33,415 nucleotides of DNA. It comes from a virus (taxonomy: Duplodnaviria; Heunggongvirae; Uroviricota; Caudoviricetes). Below the pieces are notes generated by a model. It did no database searches and had not been told where the DNA came from. It saw only the letters and a list, made by a program, of their open reading frames with translations. Made by a program: the position numbers and the translations under genes. This document shows positions 3,173 through 16,940 of the stretch, one piece after another (position 1 is the first letter of the stretch; each line of letters begins with the position of its first letter). The DNA is taken from the IMG/VR virus record IMGVR_UViG_2563366922_000004; one strand, given 5' to 3'.

Positions 3173-4472
3173 TCTCCCGCATATTGCCAGTATGGCCTTT
3201 AATGAGCCGCTGATGCTTGAACCCGCCTATGCGCGGGTTTTCTTTTGTGCGCTTGCAGGCCAGCTTGGGATCAGCCGCCTGACGGATGCGGTATCCGGCG
3301 ACAGCCTGACTGCCGGAGAGGCACCCGCGGCGCTGGCGTTATCCGTTGATGATGACGGACCACGACAGGCCCGCAGTTATCAGGTCATGAACGGCATCGC
3401 CGTGCTGCCGGTGTCCGGCACGCTGGTCAGTCGGACGCGAGCGCTGCAGCCGTATTCGGGGATGACCGGTTACAACGGCATTATCGCCCGTCTGCAACAG
3501 GCTGCCAGCGACCCGATGGTGGACGGCATTCTGCTCGATATGGATACGCCAGGCGGGATGGTGGCAGGGGCATTTGACTGCGCTGACATCATCGCCCGTG
3601 TGCGTGACATAAAGCCGGTATGGGCGCTGGCCAACGACATGAACTGCAGTGCAGGTCAGTTGCTTGCCAGTGCCGCCTCCCGGCGTCTGGTCACGCAGAC
3701 CGCCCGGACAGGCTCCATCGGCGTCATGATGGCTCACAGTAATTACGGTGCTGCGCTGGAGAAACAGGGTGTGGAAATCACGCTGATTTACAGCGGCAGC
3801 CATAAGGTGGATGGCAACCCCTACAGCCATCTTCCGGATGACGTCCGGGAGACACTGCAGTCCCGGATGGACGCAACCCGCCGGATGTTTGCACAGAAGG
3901 TGTCGGCATATACCGGCCTGTCCGTGCAGGCTGTGCTGGATACCGAGGCTGCAGTGTACAGCGGTCAGGAGGCCATTGATGCCGGACTGGCTGATGAACT
4001 TGTTAACAGTACCGATGCGATCACCGTCATGCGTGATGCACTGGATGCACGTAAATCCCGTCTCTCAGGAGGGCGAATGACCAAAGAGACTCAATCAACA
4101 ACTGTTTCAGCCACTGCTTCGCAGGCTGACGTTACTGAGGTGGTGCAAGCGACGGAGGGCGAGAACGCCAGCGCGGCGCAGCCGGACGTGAACGCGCAGA
4201 TCACCGCAGCGGTTGCGGCAGAAAACAGCCGCATTATGGGGATCCTCAACTGTGAGGAGGCTCACGGACGCGAAGAACAGGCACGCGTGCTGGCAGAAAC
4301 CCCCGGTATGACCGTGAAAACGGCCCGCCGCATTCTGGCCGCAGCACCACAGAGTGCACAGGCGCGCAGTGACACTGCGCTGGATCGTCTGATGCAGGGG
4401 GCACCGGCACCGCTGGCTGCAGGTAACCCGGCATCTGATGCCGTTAACGATTTGCTGAACACACCAGTGTAA
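3153..4472 (+). CDS. C: Head maturation protease / minor capsid protein C (439 aa), GTG start
   Basis: ORF track opens at 3039, but lambda C begins MTAELRNLPHIASMAFNEPLMLEP, which corresponds to the in-frame GTG at 3153; length from 3153 is 439 aa as in lambda; overlaps end of B. Confidence 0.88.
3867..4472 (+). CDS. Nu3: Scaffolding protein Nu3, in-frame internal start within the 3' part of C (201 aa)
   Basis: In lambda, Nu3 is the last 606 nt of C in the same frame; there is an in-frame ATG exactly 606 nt before the C stop (MDATRRMFAQKV...). Confidence 0.6.
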   Translation: MDATRRMFAQKVSAYTGLSVQAVLDTEAAVYSGQEAIDAGLADELVNSTDAITVMRDALDARKSRLSGGRMTKETQSTTVSATASQADVTEVVQATEGENASAAQPDVNAQITAAVAAENSRIMGILNCEEAHGREEQARVLAETPGMTVKTARRILAAAPQSAQARSDTALDRLMQGAPAPLAAGNPASDAVNDLLNTPV

Positions 4473-4481
4473 GGGATGTTT

Positions 4482-4814
4482 ATGACGAGCAAAGAAACCT
4501 TTACCCATTACCAGCCGCAGGGCAACAGTGACCCGGCTCATACCGCAACCGCGCCCGGCGGATTGAGTGCGAAAGCGCCTGCAATGACCCCGCTGATGCT
4601 GGACACCTCCAGCCGTAAGCTGGTTGCGTGGGATGGCACCACCGACGGTGCTGCCGTTGGCATTCTTGCGGTTGCTGCTGACCAGACCAGCACCACGCTG
4701 ACGTTCTACAAGTCCGGCACGTTCCGTTATGAGGATGTGCTCTGGCCGGAGGCTGCCAGCGACGAGACGAAAAAACGGACCGCGTTTGCCGGAACGGCAA
4801 TCAGCATCGTTTAA
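4482..4814 (+). CDS. D: Head decoration protein D (110 aa)
   Basis: [27 protein letters not shown]...AISIV matches lambda gpD; ORF track start at 4476 includes 2 extra codons, ATG at 4482 matches lambda. Confidence 0.92.
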
Positions 4815-4834
4815 CTTTACCCTTCATCACTAAA

Positions 4835-4856
4835 GGCCGCCTGTGCGGCTTTTTTT
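4835..4856 (+). terminator. Short GC hairpin (GGCCGC-ctgt-GCGGC) followed by T7 run between D and E
   Basis: Sequence aaaGGCCGCctgtGCGGCttttttt read directly; lies in the D-E intergenic spacer. Confidence 0.4.
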
Positions 4857-4869
4857 ACGGGATTTTTTT

Positions 4870-5145
4870 ATGTCGATGTACACAACCGCCCAACTGCTGG
4901 CGGCAAATGAGCAGAAATTTAAGTTTGATCCGCTGTTTCTGCGTCTCTTTTTCCGTGAGAGCTATCCCTTCACCACGGAGAAAGTCTATCTCTCACAAAT
5001 TCCGGGACTGGTAAACATGGCGCTGTACGTTTCGCCGATTGTTTCCGGTGAGGTTATCCGTTCCCGTGGCGGCTCCACCTCTGAATTTACGCCGGGATAT
5101 GTCAAACCCAAGCACTTAGCATGGCTTTCTGAGGCTTTCGTGTAG
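4870..5145 (+). pseudogene. E: Major capsid protein E, 5' fragment: 82 native codons then 9 insert-derived codons (LAWLSEAFV) and stop
   Basis: MSMYTTAQLLAANEQKFKFDPLFLRLFFRESYPFTTEKVYLSQIPGLVNMALYVSPIVSGEVIRSRGGSTSEFTPGYVKPKH matches lambda E residues 1-82; similarity ends abruptly at 5115/5116. Confidence 0.9.
5107..5115 (+). repeat. Left att core copy CCCAAGCAC (attL side)
   Basis: Matches the right copy CCGAAGCAT at 16152-16160 in 7 of 9 positions; both lie exactly where lambda-E homology ends and resumes. Confidence 0.6.
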
Positions 5146-5227
5146 TTGCTGGTTTTTACACTTAATCTTTTGATAATAAAGAATAAGTTTATCTGGCGCT
5201 TTCACTGAATTTTCCTCGTTATCTGTG

Positions 5228-5263
5228 TGTTGCAATCATCTCTGTATTGCAGCTTGTATTGCT
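5228..5263 (+). promoter_or_regulatory. Cluster of TGT(A/T)TTGCA direct repeats upstream of int; candidate integrase arm-type sites
   Basis: tgttgcaa (5228-5235), tgtattgca (5243-5251), tgtattgct (5255-5263); the same TGTATTGCA motif recurs twice near the other end at 16043-16063. Confidence 0.4.
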
Positions 5264-5277
5264 TTTTGGGGCTAAAA

Positions 5278-6513
5278 ATGGCTGGCGAGAACAAACTGAG
5301 CGACAAAGCGCTTAAAGGATATCTGGGGAAACCCAGAGAAAAGCAGATCACCATTGCTGATGGAAAGGGGCTTTCTATTCGTGTGAGTACTAAAGGGGCT
5401 GTGAGCTTTGTTTTCTTCTACAGGTTAGCAGGTGGCCGGGCTGCTCCGGTCTGGCTAACGTTGGGTAAATATCCTGATATGTCACTCAAACAGGCAAGGG
5501 AAAAGCGCGACGAGTGCCGTGGTTGGTTGGCTGACAAACGTGATCCGCGTATCCAGATTAAGATTCAGGCTGAAGAACGCTTAAAGCCGGTCACAGTGGA
5601 GGATGCACTAAATTACTGGTATGAAAATTACTGTAAGGTGCGTCGTAAAACTCATGCTGTAACGCTTGGCAGATTTCGAAAGCATATCTTTCCCTATATC
5701 GGTCATTTGCCCGTAAATGACACTCACCTATATGAATGGCTGGACTGTTTTGACCGAATTAAACGTAATGCACCAGTTATGGCGGCGTATGTTTTTTCTG
5801 ACACTAAATTAGCTCTTCGTTTTTGTCGGGTACGCCAGTACGCGACGTGTGATGCTTTAAAGGATTTGCGCATGAGTGATGTGGGGCAGATTGCAGGTAA
5901 GCGGGATCGGGTTCTGGATGAAGCCGAACTCGGCCAGCTCTGGAAGGCAATTTTTGTCGAGCCTGATTTAAAACTAATGTCTGAATACACGCGAAAAATG
6001 TTTGTGCTTTGTACAGTATTTGGATGTCGAATGAGTGAAGCCCGATTATCAGAATGGAGCGAATGGGATCTCGAAAGTTGGGTTTGGACTGTACCAAAAG
6101 ATCACTCAAAAACTGGTGTTGAAATCGTCAGACCAGTACCTGAAATTCTACGACAGTGGGTAACGGATGTTCACGAAGAGACAAAACATACTGGTTATGT
6201 GCTGGGAAGTCTGCGAATTAGAGAAAGCGTAAGCAAGATTGGGGGGAAAATCGGTAAACGTTTGGGCCATGAAAAACAATGGTCACTACACGACCTTAGA
6301 AGAACGCTATCTACTCATCTAAGTGATCTCGGTGTTGAATTTTATGTAGTAGAACAACTGTTAGGCCATGCGCTACCTGGCGTGGCAGGTGTTTACAATC
6401 GGAGTAAGTTTATGGCTAAAAAACTGGATGCTCTGGAACTCTGGACTACATATCTCAATAGCATCGCAGGTGCTGATTCAAAAGTGACAATCCTCAAACA
6501 AAAGGCTGGTTAA
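5278..6513 (+). CDS. int: Tyrosine recombinase / integrase (P4-like), probable ATG start at 5278
   Basis: N-terminal arm-binding-like region (GKYPDMSLKQAREKRDE) and C-terminal catalytic motifs (HDLRRT, LLGH, GVYNRS); ORF track opens at GTG 5227 but the homologous N-terminus begins MAGENKLSDKAL. Confidence 0.88.
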   Translation: MAGENKLSDKALKGYLGKPREKQITIADGKGLSIRVSTKGAVSFVFFYRLAGGRAAPVWLTLGKYPDMSLKQAREKRDECRGWLADKRDPRIQIKIQAEERLKPVTVEDALNYWYENYCKVRRKTHAVTLGRFRKHIFPYIGHLPVNDTHLYEWLDCFDRIKRNAPVMAAYVFSDTKLALRFCRVRQYATCDALKDLRMSDVGQIAGKRDRVLDEAELGQLWKAIFVEPDLKLMSEYTRKMFVLCTVFGCRMSEARLSEWSEWDLESWVWTVPKDHSKTGVEIVRPVPEILRQWVTDVHEETKHTGYVLGSLRIRESVSKIGGKIGKRLGHEKQWSLHDLRRTLSTHLSDLGVEFYVVEQLLGHALPGVAGVYNRSKFMAKKLDALELWTTYLNSIAGADSKVTILKQKAG

Positions 6514-6514
6514 C

Positions 6515-6742
6515 ATGAAAAAAATGGCAATTGTTGATAAAAAGGGTCTGGAGTACATTCCTAACATTGATCGTATGATCCGTGAGAAAGAATGTCGGGA
6601 GCTAACCACTCTTGCGAACAGCACACGCTGGAAGCTGGAGAAGGAAGGAAAATTTCCTAAGCGGATCAAGATTGGCGCTACTGCGGTAGCTTACCGTCTC
6701 TCCGAAGTTCAGGCATGGATTAGGGGGGAATGGCGGACATAA
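6515..6742 (+). CDS. alpA: AlpA-family HTH transcriptional regulator / excisionase-like protein (75 aa)
   Basis: Small protein directly after int with an AlpA-like helix-turn-helix region (ATAVAYRLSEVQAWIRGE); typical int-alpA pair of P4-like elements and PICIs. Confidence 0.8.
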   Translation: MKKMAIVDKKGLEYIPNIDRMIREKECRELTTLANSTRWKLEKEGKFPKRIKIGATAVAYRLSEVQAWIRGEWRT

Positions 6743-6778
6743 ATGTTGTAGTAAATTGTTATATAAAAGGGTGTAAGC

Positions 6779-7654
6779 ATGGCTACTCGAAAAAAAAATA
6801 GCGTAGAAATGAAAACTGTTTGTGAACTAATCATATCAAGAGATGATATGAAAGATAAAATTCAAGACAGAATTCAAAAAGGATTATTACTCCTACAGAA
6901 AAGCATAAATAACAATAGTGACTTGGAGCTGTTTAATGCTGATTACAGGAAATGGAGTGATTTTAATGCTGAGCTACTGAAGCGTAGTTTCACAAATGAT
7001 GATTTCAAAGAAGAATATGAAGGTGGGGCATTTGGTGTTATTTCATTGTACGAGACTTCCTTGGGAGAAAAAATCAGTGAGGCTACGCGTAAACTCCAGA
7101 GTAAGATAAGAAAACTAGAGTCGATTATGGAGCGACTGGAGTTAATTCCTATATCTTCCAAAGTTGTTGAAGAAAATATTGAAGTACCTCAGAGTTCAGC
7201 GGTAAAAACCAAAAAGGTATTCATTGTTCATGGAAGAGATGAAATATCAAAAACCAACTTAGAAGTGTTTTTAAGAGAAATTGGCTTAGAACCTATTGTT
7301 CTCCATAGGCAAGCTGATGTAGGTCAGACAGTGATTGAGAAATTTGAAGCAAATAGTGATGTTGGTTTCGCATTCATTCTTCTCACACCTGATGAGATCG
7401 CTTATTTATTGCCGCAAGACTCTTTACCTGATAATGAAAGAGAAAAGGAGTTACGTGCACGACCAAATGTAATGTTTGAATTTGGTTATTTCGTAGGGAA
7501 ATTAGGTCGTTCTAAGGTTTGTTGTCTATACACAGGTGATGTAGTGATTCCAAGTGATTTGAATGGTCTTATTTATAAAAAATTCAATTCTTCTATTGAA
7601 GAAGTAGCATATAGCATTATTAAAGACTTGCGAGCTACTGGTTACGCAGTTTAG
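6779..7654 (+). CDS. Two-domain protein: N-terminal coiled-coil-like region plus C-terminal TIR-like domain; candidate defence effector
   Basis: C-terminal half has the motifs I recall for bacterial TIR-like (COG4271-type) proteins: VFIVHGRD...LLTPDE...RARPNVMFEFGYFVGKLGR; the gene and its flanks are strongly AT-rich compared with neighbours. Confidence 0.55.
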   Translation: MATRKKNSVEMKTVCELIISRDDMKDKIQDRIQKGLLLLQKSINNNSDLELFNADYRKWSDFNAELLKRSFTNDDFKEEYEGGAFGVISLYETSLGEKISEATRKLQSKIRKLESIMERLELIPISSKVVEENIEVPQSSAVKTKKVFIVHGRDEISKTNLEVFLREIGLEPIVLHRQADVGQTVIEKFEANSDVGFAFILLTPDEIAYLLPQDSLPDNEREKELRARPNVMFEFGYFVGKLGRSKVCCLYTGDVVIPSDLNGLIYKKFNSSIEEVAYSIIKDLRATGYAV

Positions 7655-7683
7655 TAAATTCTTTGAACTAAAAATCTGCATAG

Positions 7684-7716
7684 ATATAGAGCCATTCGAG
7701 ATAAATGGCTCTATAT
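7684..7716. terminator. Perfect 13 bp inverted repeat with 7 nt loop between convergent genes; likely bidirectional terminator
   Basis: ATATAGAGCCATT-cgagata-AATGGCTCTATAT read directly; sits between the stop of 6779-7654 (+) and the stop of 7730-7909 (-). Confidence 0.5.
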
Positions 7717-7729
7717 GAAATATTATCTG

Positions 7730-7909
7730 TTAAATTTTGACTTCATATCCGCGTTGCTGTAGTTCTTTGCGAATAATCCTTTTAATCCAGGCTGCTAAAG
7801 ATTCGTCTCCATCTACTTGCTGTGCTTGCTCCATCAACTCCCTCAACTCAGGATCTAACCGAAACTGGAACGGAGGATTACCACGTCTTTGATTTTTGTG
7901 TGTTGACAC
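7730..7909 (-). CDS. Small Arc/MetJ-type ribbon-helix-helix DNA-binding protein (59 aa, GTG start); not in the ORF track
   Basis: Manual minus-strand translation gives (V)STHKNQRRGNPPFQFRLDPELRELMEQAQQVDGDESLAAWIKRIIRKELQQRGYEVKI, with a beta-strand then two helices as in Arc; start codon overlaps palindromes. Confidence 0.5.
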   Translation of the reverse strand: MSTHKNQRRGNPPFQFRLDPELRELMEQAQQVDGDESLAAWIKRIIRKELQQRGYEVKI

Positions 7910-7957
7910 GTCAATTACACCCGATGTAATGTGTTAATGTGTGATGACACATTACAT
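7903..7957. promoter_or_regulatory. Divergent control region: palindrome TTGAC-AC-GTCAA (7903-7914) and 10 bp inverted repeat ATGTAATGTG / CACATTACAT (7924-7933 / 7948-7957); candidate operator and promoter
   Basis: Inverted repeats read directly; TTGACA at 7903-7908 is a plausible -35 for the rightward operon; located between the RHH gene (-) and the 8040 operon (+). Confidence 0.35.
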
Positions 7958-8039
7958 ACGTGTTTAGGAAAATGCAACGCCTCGACGTGCGGGAACACCA
8001 TCGAGGCGTCTAACCAACCCGTTAAATGAGGTAACGATT

Positions 8040-8405
8040 ATGGCTGGAACACAGCATACCCAAACTCACCCTAAATTTATATACACCTTTCTGGCACTAC
8101 ACCACGACCGCATGGCAGATGGAGCAACTACGGTACATGTAGCCGCTGACACGCTGGTTGATGCCCGCAAGATGGTTAAGGAGATGGGCTATACTGCGGC
8201 TTTCTGGAAAGGGCGTGAAGAAAACACGCTGTTTATTCAGAAATGCGAAAACAATTTCATCTGGCGTTTTATCGCCCTGAGCACCGCACAACCGCGCGTG
8301 ATTCACATCGTGGCCACCAGCGAACAGGAAGCACGCCAGCAATCCCCGGCTGGCTGCGTGATGGTATTCGCCGCCCGTATTCGTCAGGGGGTATGCCATG
8401 CCTGA
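8040..8405 (+). CDS. Hypothetical protein; C-terminal part resembles Icd-like (cell-division-inhibitor-like) small proteins of P4-like elements
   Basis: C-terminal segment FIWRFIALSTAQPRVIHIVATSEQEARQQ...VFAARIRQG resembles the Icd-like pattern from memory; GAGG Shine-Dalgarno about 9 nt upstream of ATG 8040; first gene of a + operon. Confidence 0.45.
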   Translation: MAGTQHTQTHPKFIYTFLALHHDRMADGATTVHVAADTLVDARKMVKEMGYTAAFWKGREENTLFIQKCENNFIWRFIALSTAQPRVIHIVATSEQEARQQSPAGCVMVFAARIRQGVCHA

Positions 8406-8718
8406 TATGTCAAATTACCAGTACCTGATTAATCCGCATTTTAACTGTGAGCATGATATTGCTAAAAAGGTTTATTCCGCTGCGGATGGGGCTACTGACA
8501 ATATATCAATGGCTGTTGCGTCAATTGGTAGCCTGATGTGGCATGCGTCAGAAAATGAGGACTATGACGAAAAGGCTATGCGCATTGATATGGGTAATAT
8601 CGGTTTGTTACTGGCAATGCTTGGGCAGTTTGATATTTCGTTACGGTGCACCATTGAAAATGCCACAGATGCATTAAATGCCATAAAGAAAGCGAATACT
8701 GATTCAAATCGGGGATAA
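8398..8718 (+). CDS. Hypothetical protein (106 aa)
   Basis: ORF with ATGCCTGA start/stop overlap with the upstream gene (translational coupling); no recognisable family. Confidence 0.45.
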   Translation: MPDMSNYQYLINPHFNCEHDIAKKVYSAADGATDNISMAVASIGSLMWHASENEDYDEKAMRIDMGNIGLLLAMLGQFDISLRCTIENATDALNAIKKANTDSNRG

Positions 8719-8724
8719 ATAATC

Positions 8725-9024
8725 ATGAGAACATATTTATCTGGCTTGACTGCCAGCGGTTATGCACACCCCAAAATTATCCCCGGCGCTATTTATCTGG
8801 ATAAGAACGGTAACAGAGTAACGGTAAAAGAACTGATGTTTGACCGTGTGTATTTTATTCGTGATGGCTATTCATTTCATAGTTCGCTGAACGTGGAGAT
8901 CTTTATTAGCAGATTCAGGCGGGAAATCCCGCTTTCCAGAAATAACCATGTGTCATGTATGGATGTTGATAAAAAACTACAGGAACTGAAAAACATGATT
9001 GCCGCGTGGAGAGAGCAGAAATGA
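8725..9024 (+). CDS. Hypothetical protein (99 aa)
   Basis: ORF in operon context immediately upstream of the primase gene; no recognisable family. Confidence 0.45.
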   Translation: MRTYLSGLTASGYAHPKIIPGAIYLDKNGNRVTVKELMFDRVYFIRDGYSFHSSLNVEIFISRFRREIPLSRNNHVSCMDVDKKLQELKNMIAAWREQK

Positions 9025-10838
9025 AAAAAGCGCCAAATTTAAAACACCAGCCGCGTGACAAAATGACGGAAGTCATCATTTTTGCGGGTAGTGATGCGTG
9101 GGCACATGCGAAACAGTGGCAGGAACAGGACGGGCGACTGGCTGGCGATAACGTGCCACCTGTCTGGCTTGGAGAGCAACAACTTGCCGAACTGGACAAC
9201 CTGCAAATCGTACCGGACGGACGCTATCGCGTGCGTCTCTATCAGGCGGGGTTATTGCGTCCGGGGCTTGTTAATACCATCGGGCAGAAACTGGCAGTGG
9301 CAGGTGTCAGGGATGCTGATTATTACCCTGAAGGAATGCACAGCCAGAAACGGGAGAACTGGCGCGAATATCTGGAACGTGAACGGGCAGAGCAGGCGGA
9401 AAAGAAAAAGGTAGTTGAACTGCCTGTAAAGAAAAAAGAGCGGGTAAAAGACGATAACGCTTCATCACTGGCGCTTAACCAGATGGGAGCAAGTCAACGC
9501 GGCGAAGTTCTCCTGGCACATTATGGCGGTGAACTGGCGATTCATGCTGACTCTGACACTGTTCACCATTACAACGGCGTTGTATGGGAGCCAGTACAGG
9601 ATAAAGAATTACAGCGAGCTATGGCACAGATTTTCATTGATGCGGAGATCAGCTATTCGCAGAACGCCATTAAATCGGCGGTCGATACCATGAAGTTAAG
9701 TTTGCCTGTAATGGGGAATACAGCCCGTAACCTGATTGGATTCAGTAACGGGGTATTTGATACCAGAACAGGTAATTTTCGGGAGCATAACAAAAACGAC
9801 TGGTTGTTAATTGCCAGTGAATTACCTTTCAGCCCACCAGCAGAGGGGGAAACGCTGGCAACACATGCGCCGAATTTCTGGAAGTGGTTACGCCGTTCGG
9901 TGGCTGAGAATGACCGCAAGGCGGATCGCGTACTGGCTGCATTATTCATGGTGCTGGCGAACCGGTACGACTGGCAGTTATTCATTGAGGTAACAGGTCC
10001 AGGGGGAAGTGGTAAAAGCGTGATGGCGGAGATTTGCACCATGCTGGCGGGTAAGGCCAACACAGTATCGGCAAGCATGAAGGCGCTGGAAGATGCAAGG
10101 GAACGCGCGTTAGTGGTTGGCTTTTCGCTGATTATCATGCCGGATATGACCCGCTACGCTGGTGATGGGGCAGGGATTAAGGCTATTACAGGCGGTGACA
10201 AGGTGGCAATTGACCCGAAACACAAAGCCCCCTACTCAACGCGTATTCCGGCAGTAGTGCTGGCGGTTAACAATAACGCCATGTCATTCAGTGACCGCAG
10301 CGGGGGGATCTCACGTCGTCGGGTGATATTCAATTTTTCGGAAGTTGTACCGGAGAACGAACGCGATCCAATGCTGGCGGAAAAAATAGAAGGTGAGTTG
10401 GCGGTAGTGATTCGCCATCTGCTTACACGGTTTGCTGACCAGGACGAAGCCAGACGCCTGTTATATGAGCAGCAGAAATCTGAAGAAGCACTGGCGATAA
10501 AGCGAGAGGGGGATTCGCTGGTGGACTTCTGCGGCTATCTCATGGCGTCGGTAATGTGTGATGGCCTGTTAGTGGGTAATGCTGAAATTGTGCCATTCAG
10601 CCCACGCAGGTATCTCTATCATGCCTATCTGGCTTATATGAGGGCACATGGGTTTGGTAAACCTGTAACACTGACGCGCTTCGGTAAAGATATGCCGGGG
10701 GCAATGGCGGAATATGGCAGGGAGTATATGAAACGGAAAACGAAGCACGGTTTGCGTTCAAACGTGACACTGACGGAGGAATCAGAAGACTGGATGCCAT
10801 CATGTGTATCGGTCACTAATGACGATAGCAAAAATTAA
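9006..10838 (+). CDS. Replication protein: primase / SF3-type helicase (P4-family), start 9006 or 9021
   Basis: Walker A motif VTGPGGSGKS and Walker B-like SLIIMPD; 610 aa; immediately followed by an iteron array. Confidence 0.82.
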   Translation: MERAEMKKAPNLKHQPRDKMTEVIIFAGSDAWAHAKQWQEQDGRLAGDNVPPVWLGEQQLAELDNLQIVPDGRYRVRLYQAGLLRPGLVNTIGQKLAVAGVRDADYYPEGMHSQKRENWREYLERERAEQAEKKKVVELPVKKKERVKDDNASSLALNQMGASQRGEVLLAHYGGELAIHADSDTVHHYNGVVWEPVQDKELQRAMAQIFIDAEISYSQNAIKSAVDTMKLSLPVMGNTARNLIGFSNGVFDTRTGNFREHNKNDWLLIASELPFSPPAEGETLATHAPNFWKWLRRSVAENDRKADRVLAALFMVLANRYDWQLFIEVTGPGGSGKSVMAEICTMLAGKANTVSASMKALEDARERALVVGFSLIIMPDMTRYAGDGAGIKAITGGDKVAIDPKHKAPYSTRIPAVVLAVNNNAMSFSDRSGGISRRRVIFNFSEVVPENERDPMLAEKIEGELAVVIRHLLTRFADQDEARRLLYEQQKSEEALAIKREGDSLVDFCGYLMASVMCDGLLVGNAEIVPFSPRRYLYHAYLAYMRAHGFGKPVTLTRFGKDMPGAMAEYGREYMKRKTKHGLRSNVTLTEESEDWMPSCVSVTNDDSKN

Positions 10839-10850
10839 ACTTATGGAATA

Positions 10851-11075
10851 ACTGTTCACCACTGTTCACCCTGTCATAAATATCTTTTATATCAGTATAT
10901 TATAGGGTGAACAGTTATTTATGAACTGTTCACCAAACTATTCACTGTTCACCTTTTTGATTGTTTATTGAGCTTCAAGGGTGAACAGTGGTGAACAGTT
11001 GGTGAATAGTTTTTGTGAAACTGTTCACCCCTTAACATTATGAATTAAAAGAGAAAATATCAAAAGGTGAACAGG
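10851..11075. repeat. Iteron-type replication origin: about 10 copies of CTGTTCACC / GGTGAACAG in both orientations with an AT-rich centre
   Basis: Copies read directly at about 10852, 10862, 10906, 10926, 10945, 10979, 10990, 11000 (variant GGTGAATAG), 11021 and 11066; directly downstream of the primase gene. Confidence 0.7.
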
Positions 11076-11125
11076 TGAAGGGTTAAAACGCAAAAATTTT
11101 AATTTACTGCTGTGAGATAAAGCCT

Positions 11126-11371
11126 ATGACAGCGAAGCACACAAAAAAATCACAATCGCACGCCCTTGATTTGACGGAACACTGGTTAAGGGTGTCGATA
11201 AAAATCATTGACCGCAACGCCGGGGAAGGATATGCGAAAGCACATCCCGAACTGATTAGCGCATTCATGACAACGGCAGCTGCAAACTTTGCCACGCTGA
11301 CAGAACGGGAGATTGCCGAAGCGGAACAGGTGACAACCATCAACGTTAAAACCGGAGAGCAGACAGCATGA
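11126..11371 (+). CDS. Hypothetical protein (81 aa)
   Basis: ORF whose stop overlaps the start of the downstream SSB-like gene (ATGA); no recognisable family. Confidence 0.35.
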   Translation: MTAKHTKKSQSHALDLTEHWLRVSIKIIDRNAGEGYAKAHPELISAFMTTAAANFATLTEREIAEAEQVTTINVKTGEQTA

Positions 11372-11790
11372 CAGCACAGATAGCGGCTTACGGACGGCTG
11401 GTGGCTGACCCGCAGTTAAAGACCACCAGCAAGGGTACACAAATGACGATGGCGAGTATGGCGGTCCCCCTTCCGTGCAGCCAGGCAGATGACGGAACGG
11501 CGCCGATGTGGTTATCCGTCCTGGCGTTTGGCAGACAGGCCGACGCACTGGCAAAACACCACAAAGGCGAACTGGTGAGCGTGGCGGGTAACATGCAGGT
11601 AAGCCAGTGGACAGGCCAGAACGGCGAAACGCGGCAGGGCTGGCAGGTTATCGCAGACAGTGTAATCAGTGCCAGAACGGCGCGACCGGGCGGCAAAAAA
11701 GGTCAACAGGGCCAGGCTACTGACGCACTGAACAGGGCAAAACAACAGTCGGGGAATGATGATCCGTACGGCGATAATATACCGTTTTAA
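11368..11790 (+). CDS. ssb: Single-stranded DNA-binding protein (SSB-like, 140 aa)
   Basis: OB-fold-like N-terminal region and acidic C-terminal tail ending DDPYGDNIPF, resembling the E. coli SSB tail DFDDDIPF. Confidence 0.65.
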   Translation: MTAQIAAYGRLVADPQLKTTSKGTQMTMASMAVPLPCSQADDGTAPMWLSVLAFGRQADALAKHHKGELVSVAGNMQVSQWTGQNGETRQGWQVIADSVISARTARPGGKKGQQGQATDALNRAKQQSGNDDPYGDNIPF

Positions 11791-11807
11791 ATTCTGCAAA
11801 TAAAAAA

Positions 11808-11836
11808 ATGCCGGAAGAAAATAGATTTTCCGGCAT
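11808..11836. other. 9 bp stem hairpin (ATGCCGGAA...TTCCGGCAT) preceded by an A7 run; possible terminator after ssb
   Basis: Inverted repeat read directly. Confidence 0.3.
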
Positions 11837-12001
11837 GCTACATAAATCCCGACCAAAGGAAGTAAATACATTAACACGAATTATCAGCACTGAAGTTGTC
11901 ACGGCATATTTTATACAACATTGCACTTGGTTGCATGTATTCGCATAGCAGACATCGGTAATAGAATATATTCACAATTATTTGTAATGAATGTAAAGAG
12001 G

Positions 12002-13048
12002 ATGAGTATGGTTGATTTATATTCGCCTACACAGCTTGTGCAGGTGGCTAATGCTGAAGATGTGCAAAAAAAATTAAATGCGTTGTTTACCAGTTTGTTT
12101 TTCACTCGCTCGGTAATGTTTGAATCGAGAGACATTATTCTTGATACGATCGACGATCCAAATATCCCGATCGCGGCGTTTTGCTCTCCTATGGTGGGCA
12201 GTAAAGTTTCACGAGATGAGGGATACGAATCAAAAACAATTCGCCCTGGCTATATGAAACCGAAAAGCAGCATTGATCCAAATAAGTTAGCTGTGCGCCC
12301 TGCTGGTGTGTCACCTGAGCAATACAATGCTTTTGGGGCGCGTAATATTAAAGTTAAACAGGCGATTGTAAATCAGGCTAAAGCTATTCGTACACGTATT
12401 GAATGGCTTGCTGTTCAGGCAATCACAACGGGGAAAAATATCATTGAGGGCGATGGTATTGAACGTTATGAGCTGGACTGGAATATAAAACCACAAAATA
12501 TCATCACTCAGTCTGGCGGTACTGAGTGGTCAGGTAAGGATAAAGAAACTTTTGATCCAAATGATGATATTGAGAGCTACGCAGAATTTAGTGAGGGCGT
12601 CACTAATATCATCATTATGGGCGGTAATGTATGGAAGAAATACCGTTCATTCAGAGCGATAAAAGAGGCTCTGGATACCCGTCGTGGTTCTAATTCCGAA
12701 CTGGAAACGGCCCTTAAAGACCTTGGTGATTCGGTGAGTTTTAAAGGGTATATGGGCGATGTTGCGATTGTTGTTTACAGCGGGCGTTATACCGACGAGG
12801 ACGGAACTGAAAAACATTTCCTTGATCCTGATTTGATGGTGCTTGGCAATACGGCTCTTCAGGGGATTGTCGCTTATGGCGGTATTCAGGATCCGGAGCT
12901 AATCCGGATGGGGCTGACTAAAGCCGAACTTGCACCGAAAAACTATATTGTGCCTGGTGATCCGGCTATTGAATATGTGCAGACACATTCAGCACCACAG
13001 CCAATACCGGCCCGTATCAATCGTTTTGTTACCGTTCGCATTGGCTAA
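12002..13048 (+). CDS. Insert-encoded major capsid protein, diverged homolog of lambda gpE (about 349 aa)
   Basis: MSMVDLYSPTQLVQVANAEDV... aligns along its length with lambda E (shared motifs ITQSGGTEWS, LDTRRGSNSELETA, GDVAIVVYSG) but is clearly diverged; start chosen by analogy with lambda E (MSM...), ORF track opens at 11921. Confidence 0.85.
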   Translation: MSMVDLYSPTQLVQVANAEDVQKKLNALFTSLFFTRSVMFESRDIILDTIDDPNIPIAAFCSPMVGSKVSRDEGYESKTIRPGYMKPKSSIDPNKLAVRPAGVSPEQYNAFGARNIKVKQAIVNQAKAIRTRIEWLAVQAITTGKNIIEGDGIERYELDWNIKPQNIITQSGGTEWSGKDKETFDPNDDIESYAEFSEGVTNIIIMGGNVWKKYRSFRAIKEALDTRRGSNSELETALKDLGDSVSFKGYMGDVAIVVYSGRYTDEDGTEKHFLDPDLMVLGNTALQGIVAYGGIQDPELIRMGLTKAELAPKNYIVPGDPAIEYVQTHSAPQPIPARINRFVTVRIG

Positions 13049-13058
13049 GGGGGGAGCA

Positions 13059-13400
13059 ATGGCTACTCATTACACTGAACTCATGGCTGGCACTGAAGCA
13101 CTGGTTACTACGCTGGGGATATTTTCAGCTAATAAAGGGGTAATTCCTGCATTTACGCCACTGATGCAGGAAGATACAACAGGTGCACTGGTGGTATGGG
13201 ATGGTACGAGTGCAGGTAAAGCTGTTTATGTTTCCGCTGTACAACTCGATACAGCGAAAAAAACACAGGCTCAGGTCTATAAGACAGGTGTCTTAAATGT
13301 TGATGCTCTTAACTGGCCTGAGTCAGTAAAAGAACTGTCAGTAAAGGTTGCAGCGTTTGTTGGCTCAGGTATTTCTGTTCAGCCGCTGGCTCGTGTGTAA
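13059..13400 (+). CDS. Insert-encoded head decoration protein, diverged homolog of lambda gpD (113 aa)
   Basis: MATHYTELMAGTEALVTT...ALVVWDGTSAGKAV...YKTGVLN parallels lambda D ([13 protein letters not shown]...YKSGTF); start ATG 13059 preceded by GGGGAG. Confidence 0.78.
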   Translation: MATHYTELMAGTEALVTTLGIFSANKGVIPAFTPLMQEDTTGALVVWDGTSAGKAVYVSAVQLDTAKKTQAQVYKTGVLNVDALNWPESVKELSVKVAAFVGSGISVQPLARV

Positions 13401-13411
13401 AGGGGGATACA

Positions 13412-13795
13412 ATGCAGAATCATTACAATGACCTTAAGCCAATTGCCGAAATGATGTATCCGGATCCAGCAGTAGAGGAATTAAAGGCTATTGCTGACAA
13501 AATGCGTTTAAGCGAGCGTCTTGTTGATATGAATCAGGTGATGGAACTTACAACCCTGAGTCGTCGTACACTGCTAAACCTTGAAGCACGTGGAGAGTTC
13601 CCCGAACGCGTGCAGGTTACGGAAGGGCGTAAGGCCTGGTATTTAAGCGAAGTGATCGACTGGATAAACAATATTCCGCGCGCTTCTGAATATTGCCGCG
13701 TACCTGTCCCAAAAAAGCCAGATGCGGCGCTATGCCTCAAGATTGATCGTGTACGCCGCAATGCACGGGATGGTCGCTATAAGCTGATTGGTTGA
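13412..13795 (+). CDS. HTH protein (AlpA/MerR-like winged helix region), immediately upstream of cos; possible packaging accessory or late regulator
   Basis: Central segment MELTTLSRRTLLNLEARGEFPERVQVTEGRKAWYLSEVIDWINN resembles AlpA-type HTH; function not assignable from sequence. Confidence 0.45.
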   Translation: MQNHYNDLKPIAEMMYPDPAVEELKAIADKMRLSERLVDMNQVMELTTLSRRTLLNLEARGEFPERVQVTEGRKAWYLSEVIDWINNIPRASEYCRVPVPKKPDAALCLKIDRVRRNARDGRYKLIG

Positions 13796-13839
13796 TGAAA
13801 TTAGGGCCCGTTCTGGCTGGCGGGTCCTTTCCGGCGATC

Positions 13840-13890
13840 CGGCAGGTTACGGGGCGTCAGGCGCGCGGGTTTTCGCTATTTATGAGCATT
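13840..13890. promoter_or_regulatory. cos site of the insert (cosN-like): GTTACG-GGGCGTCAGGCG-CGCGGGTTTTCGCTATTTATGA
   Basis: Flanking bases match my recollection of lambda cosN (GTTACG / CGCGGGTTTTCGCTATTTATGA) while the 12 nt between them (13852-13863) differs from lambda's GGGCGGCGACCT; lies just upstream of a Nu1-like gene, as in lambda. Confidence 0.6.
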
Positions 13891-14011
13891 TTAAGGGGAC
13901 TGGTGGTGGTTTTGTTGTTCGCTATATCTGTATGAATAATAAGAGAAAAATACAATCAATACACCAACCTGAAACAGTAATTAAGTTGTGGTATCAATGA
14001 AATTACACCTG

Positions 14012-14539
14012 ATGAACAAAAAAAACATGGCAAAAAGTTGCCGTGTAAGCGCCACTGCGTTCGATAAGTGGGGAGTGATTCCCGTCGAGCGTAAGGGCCG
14101 TGAGGCGTTCTATGATGTTGCCAGTGTAATAGATAATCGGGTTAACAATGCAATCAGCCAGATTACAAACGAAACGGGCGATATTGATGACGATGAACTT
14201 TTACGCGTCAGGATCAGATTACTGACAGCACAGGCAGAGGCGCAGGAGCTTAAAAACGAGCGCGAACGCGGCGACGTTATTGATACAGAGTTTTGTATGT
14301 ATGTTCTTTCCAAACTGGCGAGTCAGATTTCATCTATCATGGACAGCCTGCCGCTTACCATGCAAAGGCGCTTCCCACAGATGACTCCGGCTATGCTGGA
14401 TGGACTTAAAAAGGAAGTGGCTAAAGCCTGTAATGCCAGTGCCGGCGTTGCTGACAACCTCCCACAGATACTGGCTGATTATCTGATGGAAAGTACAGGA
14501 AACGTACCGGATAAGTTGCAGCTGAATAAGGATAAGTAA
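14012..14539 (+). CDS. Terminase small subunit, Nu1-like, with divergent N-terminal DNA-binding region (start 14012, or 13997/14027)
   Basis: C-terminal two-thirds parallels lambda Nu1 (RLLTAQAEAQELKN...TEFCMYVLSKLASQISSIMDSLPLTMQRRFP vs lambda RLTRAQADAQELKN...TAFCTFVLSRIAGEIASILDGLPLSVQRRFP); N-terminus differs. Confidence 0.78.
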   Translation: MNKKNMAKSCRVSATAFDKWGVIPVERKGREAFYDVASVIDNRVNNAISQITNETGDIDDDELLRVRIRLLTAQAEAQELKNERERGDVIDTEFCMYVLSKLASQISSIMDSLPLTMQRRFPQMTPAMLDGLKKEVAKACNASAGVADNLPQILADYLMESTGNVPDKLQLNKDK

Positions 14540-14550
14540 CGTAGTACGCT

Positions 14551-14826
14551 ATGACTGAATCCGAACTACTGAAAGTAATCTGCCATGCTGGTGGAGTCAG
14601 CCACCAGCATGACGAACAGACCACGCAGCCGGGCAGTGTCACCGCTGAAAATTACGCTCGTGTGGTTGCTGAGGTTATGTGGCGTGACGGTATAGAACTG
14701 AACGGACAGGATTGCTTAGTCATCCGCACCAAAGTGCTGGCTATACTGGCAGCTAGGCGGAGGCAGGGACAACGCCAGAACGTTGCATCGTACCAGTGGA
14801 AGAAGCCTGACAGACTGCGGCGATAA
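14551..14826 (+). CDS. Hypothetical protein (91 aa)
   Basis: ORF directly downstream of the small terminase gene; no recognisable family. Confidence 0.4.
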   Translation: MTESELLKVICHAGGVSHQHDEQTTQPGSVTAENYARVVAEVMWRDGIELNGQDCLVIRTKVLAILAARRRQGQRQNVASYQWKKPDRLRR

Positions 14827-15122
14827 CTCTTTGATTTTCTCGACGGCCCCAAAATGGGCCTTACCATAGCCAGCTAATAAATGAGCAAGCCTCAAAAGTG
14901 AGGTTTGTGGCCGTTTGGCCTATTCATATGCTAACTCGTTGATATTCCTGACGACGCAAATTTACGCCTTGTGGCTGGTAGTCGAATTGCAAATTTGCAA
15001 CTCAACTATGAAACTACAGGTAGTTTGGGTAGTAAAAGCAACACACTGATTTTGGGGCTTCTTCGCGATACCTAATATTATGGTATCGGTGGAAGAGATA
15101 TCGTTTCTCATAGGTTAGCACC

Positions 15123-15142
15123 GAGGGCGGAGTTCCGCCCTC
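15123..15142. other. Perfect inverted repeat GAGGGCGGA-gt-TCCGCCCTC in the ORF-free spacer downstream of the HEPN gene
   Basis: Read directly; no clear U-run on either strand, so terminator function is uncertain. Confidence 0.3.
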
Positions 15143-15228
15143 ATCGAAAAATTGCTTACGAGTCGTCAAAATAAATTAATCGACTGAGTATAATGATTAA
15201 CTAATTGCTCGTGTTACTTCATTATACG

Positions 15229-15990
15229 TTATTTCCCATCTTTAAGGTTTAACCAAGTGTTAATTAAAAAAAGAGCCATTGAGCCTGATAAATTTACTGC
15301 AAGTTCGGCATGCCTTGGGGATGGCTTAATTGATGAGCTGTTCGTTCCATGTGCATCACCGAGTTTATTACGAAGAGTACCTAACCCATTTACAACTGCA
15401 GAACAACCGCCGAGAATTTGTTTGAAGATATTTTCAGTATGTTGGTCGGCAGATAGGTTAAGTTCTTTTGAAAGAGTTTTATAAAGCTCTGACATTTCAA
15501 TATTTTTATTATTATACTGAATGCCCATATCATCAAGAATGTGTTTGCAAACTGTTTCAAGAAGTGTTCTTGCGGAGGTTATCGCACCATCCGGATCTGT
15601 ATGGCGCCGTTCAAGTGCTTTTATCCAAACGGCGTGGACTCCATCCTCGTTAAACTTTCTTAATACATCAGATATGTCTTCATCCGCTGGAGCTTTATTT
15701 TTCCCTTCTAGATAGTCCAGCATCGGCTGAAATGCCTTATAAATCAAATCTCTCCGGGGGGCATACTTTTCAGTCTTTTTTATAAATCCCCAAAATTCTT
15801 TTAGTGAGCGATTAGTTCTCACAAACTCTGGTAATAGCTGATGTAAAGGAGGATTTTGTAAGAAATATGTTCTTAGAAGCAAATAATCATTATTAGCTTC
15901 ATCCTGGGCTCCTGTAGCTCTTGCAATTAGTATGTTTTGAAGCGCTACTGCGCGCTCTAGGTCATTTTGAAGGGTATCTATAATATTCAT
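15229..15990 (-). CDS. HEPN-domain protein of the Abi_C (abortive infection C-terminal) type, 253 aa
   Basis: Contains R-x6-H motif in LRNKLGDAHG preceded by ...ITSARTLLETVCKHILDDMGIQY...LYKTLSKELNL...ENIFKQILGGCSAVVNGLGT, matching my recollection of Abi_C; only minus-strand gene in the insert besides the RHH; AT-rich. Confidence 0.65.
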   Translation of the reverse strand: MNIIDTLQNDLERAVALQNILIARATGAQDEANNDYLLLRTYFLQNPPLHQLLPEFVRTNRSLKEFWGFIKKTEKYAPRRDLIYKAFQPMLDYLEGKNKAPADEDISDVLRKFNEDGVHAVWIKALERRHTDPDGAITSARTLLETVCKHILDDMGIQYNNKNIEMSELYKTLSKELNLSADQHTENIFKQILGGCSAVVNGLGTLRNKLGDAHGTNSSSIKPSPRHAELAVNLSGSMALFLINTWLNLKDGK

Positions 15991-16042
15991 AACAAATCTT
16001 TATTCACTTCATTTGTGGGTTGATAATTGAATGGTTTGTACA

Positions 16043-16063
16043 TTGATTTCTGTGTATTGCAGT
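16043..16063 (+). promoter_or_regulatory. Two TGTATTGCA direct repeats near the right end; candidate integrase arm-type sites
   Basis: Same 9-mer as at 5243-5263 near the left end; 12 bp spacing. Confidence 0.4.
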
Positions 16064-16151
16064 GTGTATTGCAACATAGCCATTCAGGTAGAGATTATGC
16101 TCTATTTTTCCTCTTATATCATTCACATACTTACACCATTGACTCATGTAG

Positions 16152-16160
16152 CCGAAGCAT
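16152..16160 (+). repeat. Right att core copy CCGAAGCAT (attR side; E codons P-K-H)
   Basis: Direct repeat partner of 5107-5115; immediately followed by E codon 83 (gaa gtg aat = EVN). Confidence 0.6.
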
Positions 16161-16940
16161 GAAGTGAATCCGCAGATGACCCTGCGTCGCCTGCCGGATG
16201 AAGAACCGCAGAATCTGGCGGACCCGGCTTACCGCCGCCGTCGCATCATCATGCAGAACATGCGTGACGAAGAGCTGGCCATTGCTCAGGTCGAAGAGAT
16301 GCAGGCAGTTTCTGCCGTGCTTAAGGGCAAATACACCATGACCGGTGAAGCCTTCGATCCGGTTGAGGTGGATATGGGCCGCAGTGAGGAGAATAACATC
16401 ACGCAGTCCGGCGGCACGGAGTGGAGCAAGCGTGACAAGTCCACGTATGACCCGACCGACGATATCGAAGCCTACGCGCTGAACGCCAGCGGTGTGGTGA
16501 ATATCATCGTGTTCGATCCGAAAGGCTGGGCGCTGTTCCGTTCCTTCAAAGCCGTCAAGGAGAAGCTGGATACCCGTCGTGGCTCTAATTCCGAGCTGGA
16601 GACAGCGGTGAAAGACCTGGGCAAAGCGGTGTCCTATAAGGGGATGTATGGCGATGTGGCCATCGTCGTGTATTCCGGACAGTACGTGGAAAACGGCGTC
16701 AAAAAGAACTTCCTGCCGGACAACACGATGGTGCTGGGGAACACTCAGGCACGCGGTCTGCGCACCTATGGCTGCATTCAGGATGCGGACGCACAGCGCG
16801 AAGGCATTAACGCCTCTGCCCGTTACCCGAAAAACTGGGTGACCACCGGCGATCCGGCGCGTGAGTTCACCATGATTCAGTCAGCACCGCTGATGCTGCT
16901 GGCTGACCCTGATGAGTTCGTGTCCGTACAACTGGCGTAA
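16161..16940 (+). pseudogene. E: Major capsid protein E, 3' fragment (codons 83-341, beginning EVNPQMTLRRLPD...)
   Basis: Translation matches lambda E from residue 83 to the C-terminal ...FVSVQLA; 82 + 259 = 341 codons, the full length of lambda E. Confidence 0.9.

Follow-up and report, generated by a model that had tools for sequence, protein, structure and literature searches.

In the 33,415-nucleotide stretch of viral DNA analysed here (the window), a gene for a replication initiator, rep, is followed directly by an array of iterons. [quoted passage not shown] The sequence argues that the array is a genuine iteron origin and that it is served by a self-loading SF3 helicase. The rep-ori layout of an embedded PICI has already been published; what goes beyond it here is the use of phage P4 binding sites by an initiator with no recognisable primase domain.

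The host island and its relatives

The island, of about 11 kb, lies inside the major capsid gene of the helper prophage, fragments of which are found on both flanks. The attL core AACCCAAGCA (5105-5114), within the helper capsid gene, marks its left end, and the attR core AGCCGAAGCA (16150-16159), beyond which the capsid gene resumes, its right end. A search for att sites as direct repeats found nothing because two mismatches separate the 10-bp cores; the sites were placed by reading the junctions and by matching them to published alignments, and the attL flank is identical to an HE-PICI attL of the 'E_Phage_cap_E_80' group in a supplementary file of PMC10111431. As in HE-PICIs, insertion is within a helper late gene, at the capsid-E att site. 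As in Gram-negative PICIs, the island opens on its left with int (5227-6513, plus strand; Arm-DNA-bind_3 and Phage_integrase domains) and then alpA (6515-6742, plus strand; Phage_AlpA), which point the same way as its other genes, and pri-rep is followed directly by an ori in which sets of iterons flank AT-rich DNA. Downstream of the array are a small conserved ORF (11126-11371, plus strand), found at the same position in EcCICFT073 and 11capE, and the SSB gene of the island replication zone (11368-11790, plus strand; Pfam SSB, E=1.6e-15). Annotation and partial Pfam scans revealed none of the P4-like satellite hijacking genes psu, sid, delta and epsilon among the RefSeq products of the island.

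The founder HE-PICI, Eco567.11capE of E. coli NRG857c (CP001855.1:1199333-1210409), represents a published type (Tommasini, Mageeney & Williams 2023; PMC10111431). Both islands measure about 11 kb, occupy the same site in a lambda-like capsid gene E and share one gene order (int, alpA, ..., DUF4222, rep, ori, small ORF, ssb, capsid, decoration). The origin arrays are identical at 288 of 290 positions, and the Rep proteins are nearly identical from about residue 150 to the C-terminus, where BLASTP shows one substitution. The N-terminal module of 11capE Rep is a different allele, its first ~150 residues accounting for most of the 77 mismatches, and the accessory cargo also differs, with TIR and Abi genes in the window and HEPN and DUF262 genes in 11capE.

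Fillol-Salom et al. 2018 (PMC6092414) reported the rep-then-ori layout for Gram-negative PICIs and showed that the rep-ori region of EcCICFT073, with no other island DNA aboard, sustains a temperature-sensitive plasmid in DH5alpha and that deletion of rep or ori impairs it. EcCICFT073 is integrated in the chromosome, whereas the window island lies inside its helper; the gene order around rep is the same, as are the N-terminal module and the D5_N, DUF5906 and Pox_D5 domains of the initiator. Between the two proteins identity is 48% overall, falling to 34% in the binding domain. The EcCICFT073 origin has the layout of that of the window: two iterons are followed by an AT spacer, a single opposed iteron and three more iterons, and beyond these lie further opposed iterons, a second set that partly mirrors the first. 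Its iteron is CTGTCTACC, that of the window CTGTTCACC, and this difference matches the diverged binding domain, an instance of co-variation.

Among more distant elements, the 16.5-kb record of Escherichia phage vB_KppS-Ant (LR881103), whose source is given as 'induced prophage', encodes a Rep 75% identical to that of the window, directly followed by a two-module array of TGTTCACC, the octamer core of the window iteron; unlike the island it does not interrupt a capsid gene and has its own terminase, portal and capsid in a larger, different late-gene module. In Serratia phage Scapp an alpha-like gene precedes an array of a third iteron, TTGCACTTTTC, and the gene of Pasteurella phage Pmp7, whose Rep is 34% identical, was not seen to be followed by a clear array. 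The SaPIs show only distant sequence similarity, with iterons of 5-6 nt and Gram-positive hosts. Like the window Rep, their Rep or PriRep is a helicase-initiator of the SF3 type that carries its DNA-binding domain at the C-terminus, and their iterons, immediately 3' of rep, are opposed around an AT-rich centre. SaPI Reps bind these iterons via a C-terminal winged-helix domain, load themselves and unwind DNA 3'->5' (Qiao et al. 2022, PMC9371898).

The Rep protein and its N-terminal module

The rep gene ('pri-rep', 605 aa; 9021-10838, plus strand) has its RefSeq start at ATG 9021, which is also the likely start, overlapping as ATGA the stop codon of the upstream DUF4222 gene (8725-9024). A preliminary description of this DNA had begun the gene at 9006; the gene is real, but the GTG at that position is only the start of the longest ORF (610 aa), from whose numbering the D5_N coordinates given here were converted. 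An N-terminal alpha/beta module of ~130 aa (9021-9419, plus strand) and a K/E-rich linker, extending to about 9452, are followed on the same strand by a D5_N domain (9504-9893; PF08706, E=1.6e-13), an SF3 helicase ATPase core (DUF5906; 9993-10319; PF19263, E=1.4e-10) and a C-terminal origin-binding domain of the Pox_D5 type (10509-10799). The P-loop reported earlier is the Walker A motif GPGGSGKS at residues 326-333 (nt 9996-10019). The ATPase region aligns with SaPI5 PriRep5 (PDB 7OLA, E=2.6e-10), and the C-terminal domain was recognised by phmmer from the corresponding domain of P4 alpha (PDB 1KA8, E=1.8e-24), to which it is 49% identical. P4 alpha shares the D5_N, SF3 helicase and origin-binding domains with Rep at 51% identity (50.7% between Rep aa 145-595 and alpha aa ~320-771).

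The N-terminal module sits where P4 alpha has its Zn-ribbon and Toprim primase domains, which the window Rep lacks: Pfam finds Zn_Ribbon_Prim and Toprim_3 in alpha and neither in Rep, including no zinc ribbon of the kind expected of a DnaG/Toprim-type primase. Pfam and NCBIfam searches of the module detected nothing primase-like, nor did an hhalign comparison with the N-terminus of P4 alpha (probability 0.2% against aa 1-320). The canonical Toprim acidic motifs are absent from it, with Ala22-Gly23 after strand 1 in place of the conserved catalytic Glu and no DxD, and E17 is the sole acidic residue conserved across the family. The module is rare, occurring in 143 clusters among 1.84 billion representative proteins, and is swapped among three helicase bodies (D5/SF3, DUF927 and AAA_25) as well as between alleles of the same Rep. 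The label 'primase' applied in the preliminary description is unsupported by these sequence comparisons, in which only the D5_N, SF3 ATPase and Pox_D5-type domains were recognised, and Rep should better be named a helicase-initiator. SaPIs do have a primase, either as a protein of its own or as part of a fusion. The N-terminal module might be a novel type of priming domain or might recruit the host primase or replisome.

An iteron array of two inverted P4-type modules

Between 10852 and 11074 there are nine exact copies of CTGTTCACC or its complement, five on the plus strand (10852, 10862, 10926, 10945 and 11021) and four on the minus strand (10906, 10980, 10990 and 11066), all located by sequence search. 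With a one-mismatch copy, CTATTCACC, on the minus strand at 11001 and two further degenerate copies found by eye, ACTATTCAC (10936-10944) and GGTGAAGG (11074-11081), the array totals twelve sites in 10852-11081, in good agreement with the ten or so copies in both orientations first noticed. In the window there are 14 copies of the octamer TGTTCACC where shuffles predict 1.1 (maximum in any shuffle, 3), and nine of the 14 fall inside the 230-bp array stretch. At one mismatch or fewer, the array holds 10 iteron matches and any other 300-bp stretch of the window at most 3; a second iteron cluster was not found elsewhere in the 33 kb. A search of literature full text for the octamer returned primer lists only.

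The array begins 13 bp past the rep stop codon (10836-10838), and 45 bp separate its end from the next ORF (11126). Its placement directly after the initiator/helicase gene, also described earlier, is the documented layout of PICIs and SaPIs (PMC6092414, PMC9371898). A promoter and terminator scan of 10600-11400 found no such site between rep and the downstream genes, and the idea of a P4-like terminator between rep and the array was dropped for that reason. An Rfam scan of the island (5000-16300) gave no match, and hence neither an RNA family over the array nor a C4/isrK-type immunity RNA. Across six relatives, 76 of 96 columns are invariant in the iterons and 59 of 140 elsewhere (Fisher p=1.3e-8). 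The array was detected at a length coverage of at least 80% in 668 of 5426 complete E. coli genomes, and an intact rep together with the array, at a query coverage of at least 80%, in 655 complete genomes.

Instead of the single AT-rich core first described, the array has two, each within one of two inverted modules of ~100 bp that run in the order three iterons, one opposed iteron, a 35-36 bp spacer (80% A+T) and two iterons. Both align end to end with P4 ori and crr. Module A (10852-10953, minus strand) has, in minus-strand order, iterons at 10945, 10936 (degenerate) and 10926, the opposed iteron at 10906, the spacer at 10871-10905 (80% A+T) and iterons at 10862 and 10852. After an inter-module spacer of 26 bp (10954-10979, 73% A+T), module B (10980-11081, plus strand) has iterons at 10980, 10990 and 11001 (degenerate), the opposed iteron at 11021, the spacer at 11030-11065 (81% A+T) and iterons at 11066 and 11074 (degenerate). 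Seven modules can be aligned end to end (two of the window, one of P4 ori, two of P4 crr and two of vB_KppS-Ant), and the core made up of TGTTCACC, the AT spacer and GGTGAACAG-GTGAAC is invariant in this alignment.

The P4 record (NC_001609) labels TGTTCACC 'ori type 1 repeat' both in ori (9310-9413) and in crr (4291-4590). The octamer is identical in P4 and in the window array, and the module layout and spacings of the window are nearly identical to those of P4 ori; the start-to-start distances in module B are 10, 11, 21 and 44 bp, and those in P4 ori 10, 11, 22 and 43 bp. P4 alpha reportedly binds these type I iterons, as the GenBank annotation also indicates. The AT spacer of module B resembles that of P4 crr, and this module is oriented with respect to rep just as the crr repeats are with respect to alpha. 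In P4, crr lies directly downstream of alpha (4636-6969) and ori 4.7 kb away; crr consists of two direct 120-bp repeats, whereas the window has a single compound locus of two inverted modules. The P4 division into ori and crr does not recur in the window, which holds one cluster with both modules in the crr position. The rest of the window element is PICI-like and unlike P4.

Proposed mechanism, alternatives and significance

The five steps of replication that we infer for the window element would begin with Rep, a putative self-loading SF3 helicase-initiator of the phage P4 alpha lineage, whose C-terminal domain is predicted to recognise the octamer TGTTCACC at the twelve sites 3' of rep, where opposed iterons flank each 35-36 bp, 80% A+T spacer. 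Iteron-bound Rep would melt the AT spacers and load hexamers there, and the inverted pair of modules would set up two oppositely oriented helicases and thus bidirectional replication. The island-encoded SSB would coat the unwound DNA. Rep has no recognisable primase domain, and primers would therefore probably come from host DnaG; non-canonical priming by the N-terminal module would be a less likely alternative.

The array might instead be a crr-like auxiliary or copy-control (handcuffing) site, with initiation at another site, in the island or the helper. P4 crr is said to be a site at which replication does not initiate, a role that its GenBank annotation also gives. Since the array directly downstream of alpha in P4 is crr, position after the gene is insufficient proof of initiation, and the likeness of the module B spacer to that of crr points the same way; we nonetheless regard this reading as quite improbable, given the single iteron cluster of the window, the presence in both window modules of the three-iteron arm of P4 ori and the reduced plasmid replication on deletion of the equivalent region of EcCICFT073 (PMC6092414). 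An operator or packaging signal, for instance for downstream late genes or for the island TerS, seems extremely improbable: the SSB, capsid and TerS genes do lie downstream of the array, and no separate promoter-like site was found in 10600-11400, but TerS is 3 kb away, the array is homologous to P4 ori and crr and adjoins a gene for a protein with a P4-type origin-binding domain, and the iteron co-varies with that domain in EcCICFT073.

It is unlikely, too, that the module is largely vestigial and the island copied passively with its helper prophage, rep-ori playing a minor part. What speaks for passive copying is the induction of 11capE, in which replication of the composite precedes a late excision of the satellite, with attP:attB near 1 in two of three replicates; yet the third gave a ratio of 1.6-1.9 (PMC10111431), the Rep ORF is intact and found so with its array in the many genomes counted above, the iterons are more conserved than the spacers across relatives, and the same module is present in the vB_KppS-Ant record, listed as an induced prophage. 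These ratios indicate that replication of 11capE after excision is moderate at best, so autonomous replication at that stage may be weak, or copying mostly passive within the helper. The preliminary description had taken the gene and array to confirm a replicon; the layout does fit PICI replicons, but 'confirms' overstated a sequence inference for an element type whose attP:attB ratio is mostly near 1. The rep-ori module of an HE-PICI is the reading that we retain.

The embedded island carries a complete, conserved replication module, in keeping with the published picture of HE-PICIs, and current understanding of satellite replication is unchanged. For annotation, the gain is an origin recognised as a compound of two inverted P4-type modules. 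With a P4-type binding domain and octamer in the island, co-resident P4-like satellites and the island might affect each other's origins, by mutual firing, titration or blocking. The combined proposal of a P4-alpha-derived initiator whose group-specific N-terminal module has replaced the primase, linked with such cross-interference between the origins of P4 satellites and islands, is a tentative one that we hold to be possible, if doubtful. Because the specificity determinant TGTTCACC is common to this island and phage P4, possible cross-talk is predicted between two very common families of E. coli satellites.

Anatomy of the iteron array downstream of rep

In the DNA 3' of rep, CTGTTCACC or its complement is present nine times without mismatch within 10852-11081; the copy at 11001 carries one mismatch, and inspection by eye adds two degenerate copies, at 10936 and 11074. 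Shuffling predicts 1.1 occurrences of the core octamer TGTTCACC in the 33-kb window, which contains 14, nine of them inside the array. Near-matches to the iteron number at most three in any other 300-bp stretch of the window, and a search for a second iteron cluster across the window found none outside 10852-11081. The array starts 13 bp 3' of the rep stop codon, and the next ORF follows 45 bp after its end. The preliminary description, which reported about ten 9-mers in both orientations immediately after a P-loop gene, is thus borne out by nine exact and three degenerate copies. It had also proposed an AT-rich core; AT-rich DNA is present but forms two cores rather than one, at 10871-10905 and 11030-11065, with 80-81% A+T.

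The array is made of two mutually inverted modules with 26 bp between them. In module B (10980-11081), three iterons are followed after 13 bp by a single opposed iteron, and a 36-bp AT-rich spacer then leads to two further iterons, the last of which is degenerate; module A (10852-10953) repeats this order on the opposite strand. From one iteron to its neighbour the distance is 10-11 bp, roughly a turn of the helix. Neither a promoter-like nor a terminator-like site was detected between rep and the downstream genes, and rep transcription probably reads on through the array. An inverted octamer pair (GGTGAACT and TGTTCACC, 24 bp apart) was also observed within the rep coding sequence at 9528-9567; it may be due to chance, since four other exact octamers lie outside the array in the window.

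Rep and its N-terminal module

The rep ORF extends over 9006-10838 on the plus strand if the first GTG (9006) is taken as its start, while RefSeq starts the gene on identical DNA at ATG 9021, overlapping the stop of the upstream gene as ATGA. Rep carries the Walker A motif GPGGSGKS and the Pfam domains D5_N, SF3-type ATPase (DUF5906) and C-terminal Pox_D5. Its residues 145-595 are 50.7% identical to residues ~320-771 of phage P4 alpha, its ATPase region aligns also to SaPI5 PriRep5 (PDB 7OLA), and its last ~100 residues match the solved C-terminal domain of P4 alpha (PDB 1KA8, E=1.8e-24). The primase zinc ribbon and Toprim, both N-terminal in P4 alpha, were undetected in Rep and in Pri-Rep of EcCICFT073, the model Gram-negative PICI. 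NCBI calls the protein 'DNA primase family protein', a name that seems to derive from TIGR01613 'primase_Cterm'; this model spans the helicase part, and Rep scores below its cut-off. The term helicase-initiator is supported and the term primase is not.

The first ~130 residues of Rep (window 9021-9419) are predicted with confidence to fold as an alpha/beta domain (AF2 pLDDT 86.6) and belong to a small family, which accounts for just 143 clusters out of 1.84 billion representatives. A4, P5, E17, G23, A26, P47, L55, G77, A92 and R122 are conserved across the wider family, as is a short 'APN'-like peptide at the N-terminus. E17 is the sole conserved acidic residue, and both a Glu after strand 1 and a DxD were sought in this module and found absent. 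The module occurs interchangeably on D5/SF3, DUF927 or AAA_25 helicase bodies. Compared with Rep of the founder island Eco567.11capE (11capE), the window Rep shows 77 mismatches, most of them in the N module (window 9021-9470 versus 4230-4680 of the 11capE DNA, L012), and only one residue differs from ~aa 150 on; this concentration implies recombination at the K/E-rich linker. The N module may have a non-canonical priming or primase-recruiting role.

Relation to the P4 origin and proposed initiator-site pairing

The P4 record (NC_001609) labels TGTTCACC 'ori type 1 repeat' in both ori (9310-9413) and crr (4291-4590), the cis-required region directly downstream of alpha. The order of elements in P4 ori is that of module B, with spacings of 10, 11, 22 and 43 bp in P4 versus 10, 11, 21 and 44 bp in the window. 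Seven modules align over their full length: two each from the window, P4 crr and the phage record vB_KppS-Ant, and one from P4 ori. Judged by this alignment and these spacings, the window array combines two P4-type modules, inverted relative to each other, at the position of the crr.

Comparisons among relatives, including co-variation of initiator and site, support the repeats as the sites of the initiator. P4 alpha, which binds type I iterons according to its GenBank annotation, has a binding domain 49% identical to that of the window Rep, and the octamer is common to both. EcCICFT073 Pri-Rep is 48% identical to Rep overall but 34% in the binding domain; its array has the same layout whereas its iteron differs (CTGTCTACC). 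The complete siphovirus Serratia phage Scapp (L011, 2822-3137) carries a third iteron: some ten TTGCACTTTTC/GAAAAGTGCAA repeats, in either orientation, directly follow a P4-alpha-like primase gene (38% identity), and the gene-then-array layout therefore reaches beyond satellites. When six arrays, all with TGTTCACC iterons, were aligned, invariant columns made up 76 of 96 within the iterons versus 59 of 140 elsewhere (p=1.3e-8). Of 5426 complete E. coli genomes, 668 contain at least 80% of the array. An STEC relative (L007, NZ_CP074895.1) has at ~2640-2660 an extra 10-bp iteron unit, aligned to window ~10975; iteron copy number is therefore polymorphic.

The host island and its proposed replication

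The island (5115-16159; 11,045 bp) lies within a lambda-like prophage and splits its major capsid gene, fragments of which lie on either side (4843-5114 and 16160-16940), with attL and attR cores at 5105-5114 and 16150-16159. Its genes are ordered int, alpA, TIR-domain gene, Icd-like gene, DUF4222, rep and ori, followed by a small ORF, ssb, capsid, decoration, HTH gene, terS and Abi gene; capsid (11921-13048), decoration and TerS proteins are encoded by the island itself. It is a helper-embedded PICI of Tommasini et al. 2023 (PMC10111431): its attL flank is identical to that of a published 'E_Phage_cap_E_80' group member, and its array matches that of 11capE at 288 of 290 positions. The TIR-domain gene (6779-7654, plus strand; CAP12/Pycsar-type, Pfam E=1.2e-33) and a gene annotated as abortive-infection family (15229-15990, minus strand) look like anti-phage defence cargo; in 11capE the corresponding ends hold genes for HEPN and DUF262 instead. 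CTGTGTATTGCA-like motifs recur immediately inside each end of the island, at 5225-5262 upstream of int and at 16051-16075 before attR, and are probably integrase arm-type binding sites. An Rfam scan of 5000-16300 returned no family at E<=0.1, and thus no C4/isrK-type immunity RNA. Such RNAs have been reported for some other PICIs.

The feature is real and its reading as an initiator gene with an iteron origin is essentially right; both the arrangement and the element family are already published. In Gram-negative PICIs the ori 3' of pri-rep consists of iteron sets around an AT-rich region, and a temperature-sensitive plasmid with the EcCICFT073 rep-ori is maintained in a strain that lacks the helper (Fillol-Salom et al. 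2018, PMC6092414). The mechanistic model comes from SaPIs, where iterons 3' of rep are bound by the C-terminal domain of a self-loading SF3 helicase (PMC9371898). The statement that this arrangement confirms the insert as a replicon was too strong, because the only in vivo findings for elements of this kind are equivocal: upon 11capE induction, two of three replicates gave an attP:attB ratio of ~1 and the remaining one gave 1.6-1.9 (PMC10111431).

After induction, Rep would bind the iterons of modules A and B through its C-terminal domain, melt both AT-rich spacers and self-assemble as oppositely oriented hexamers, with the island SSB stabilising the single strands. Primers would probably come from host DnaG, the N module being a less likely source. 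The anatomy, homology, co-variation and conservation are established, whereas binding, melting, helicase loading and priming are inferred. The additions made here to this family are modest: P4-type origin specificity and module structure, an initiator without a recognisable primase domain, and a mobile N-terminal module.
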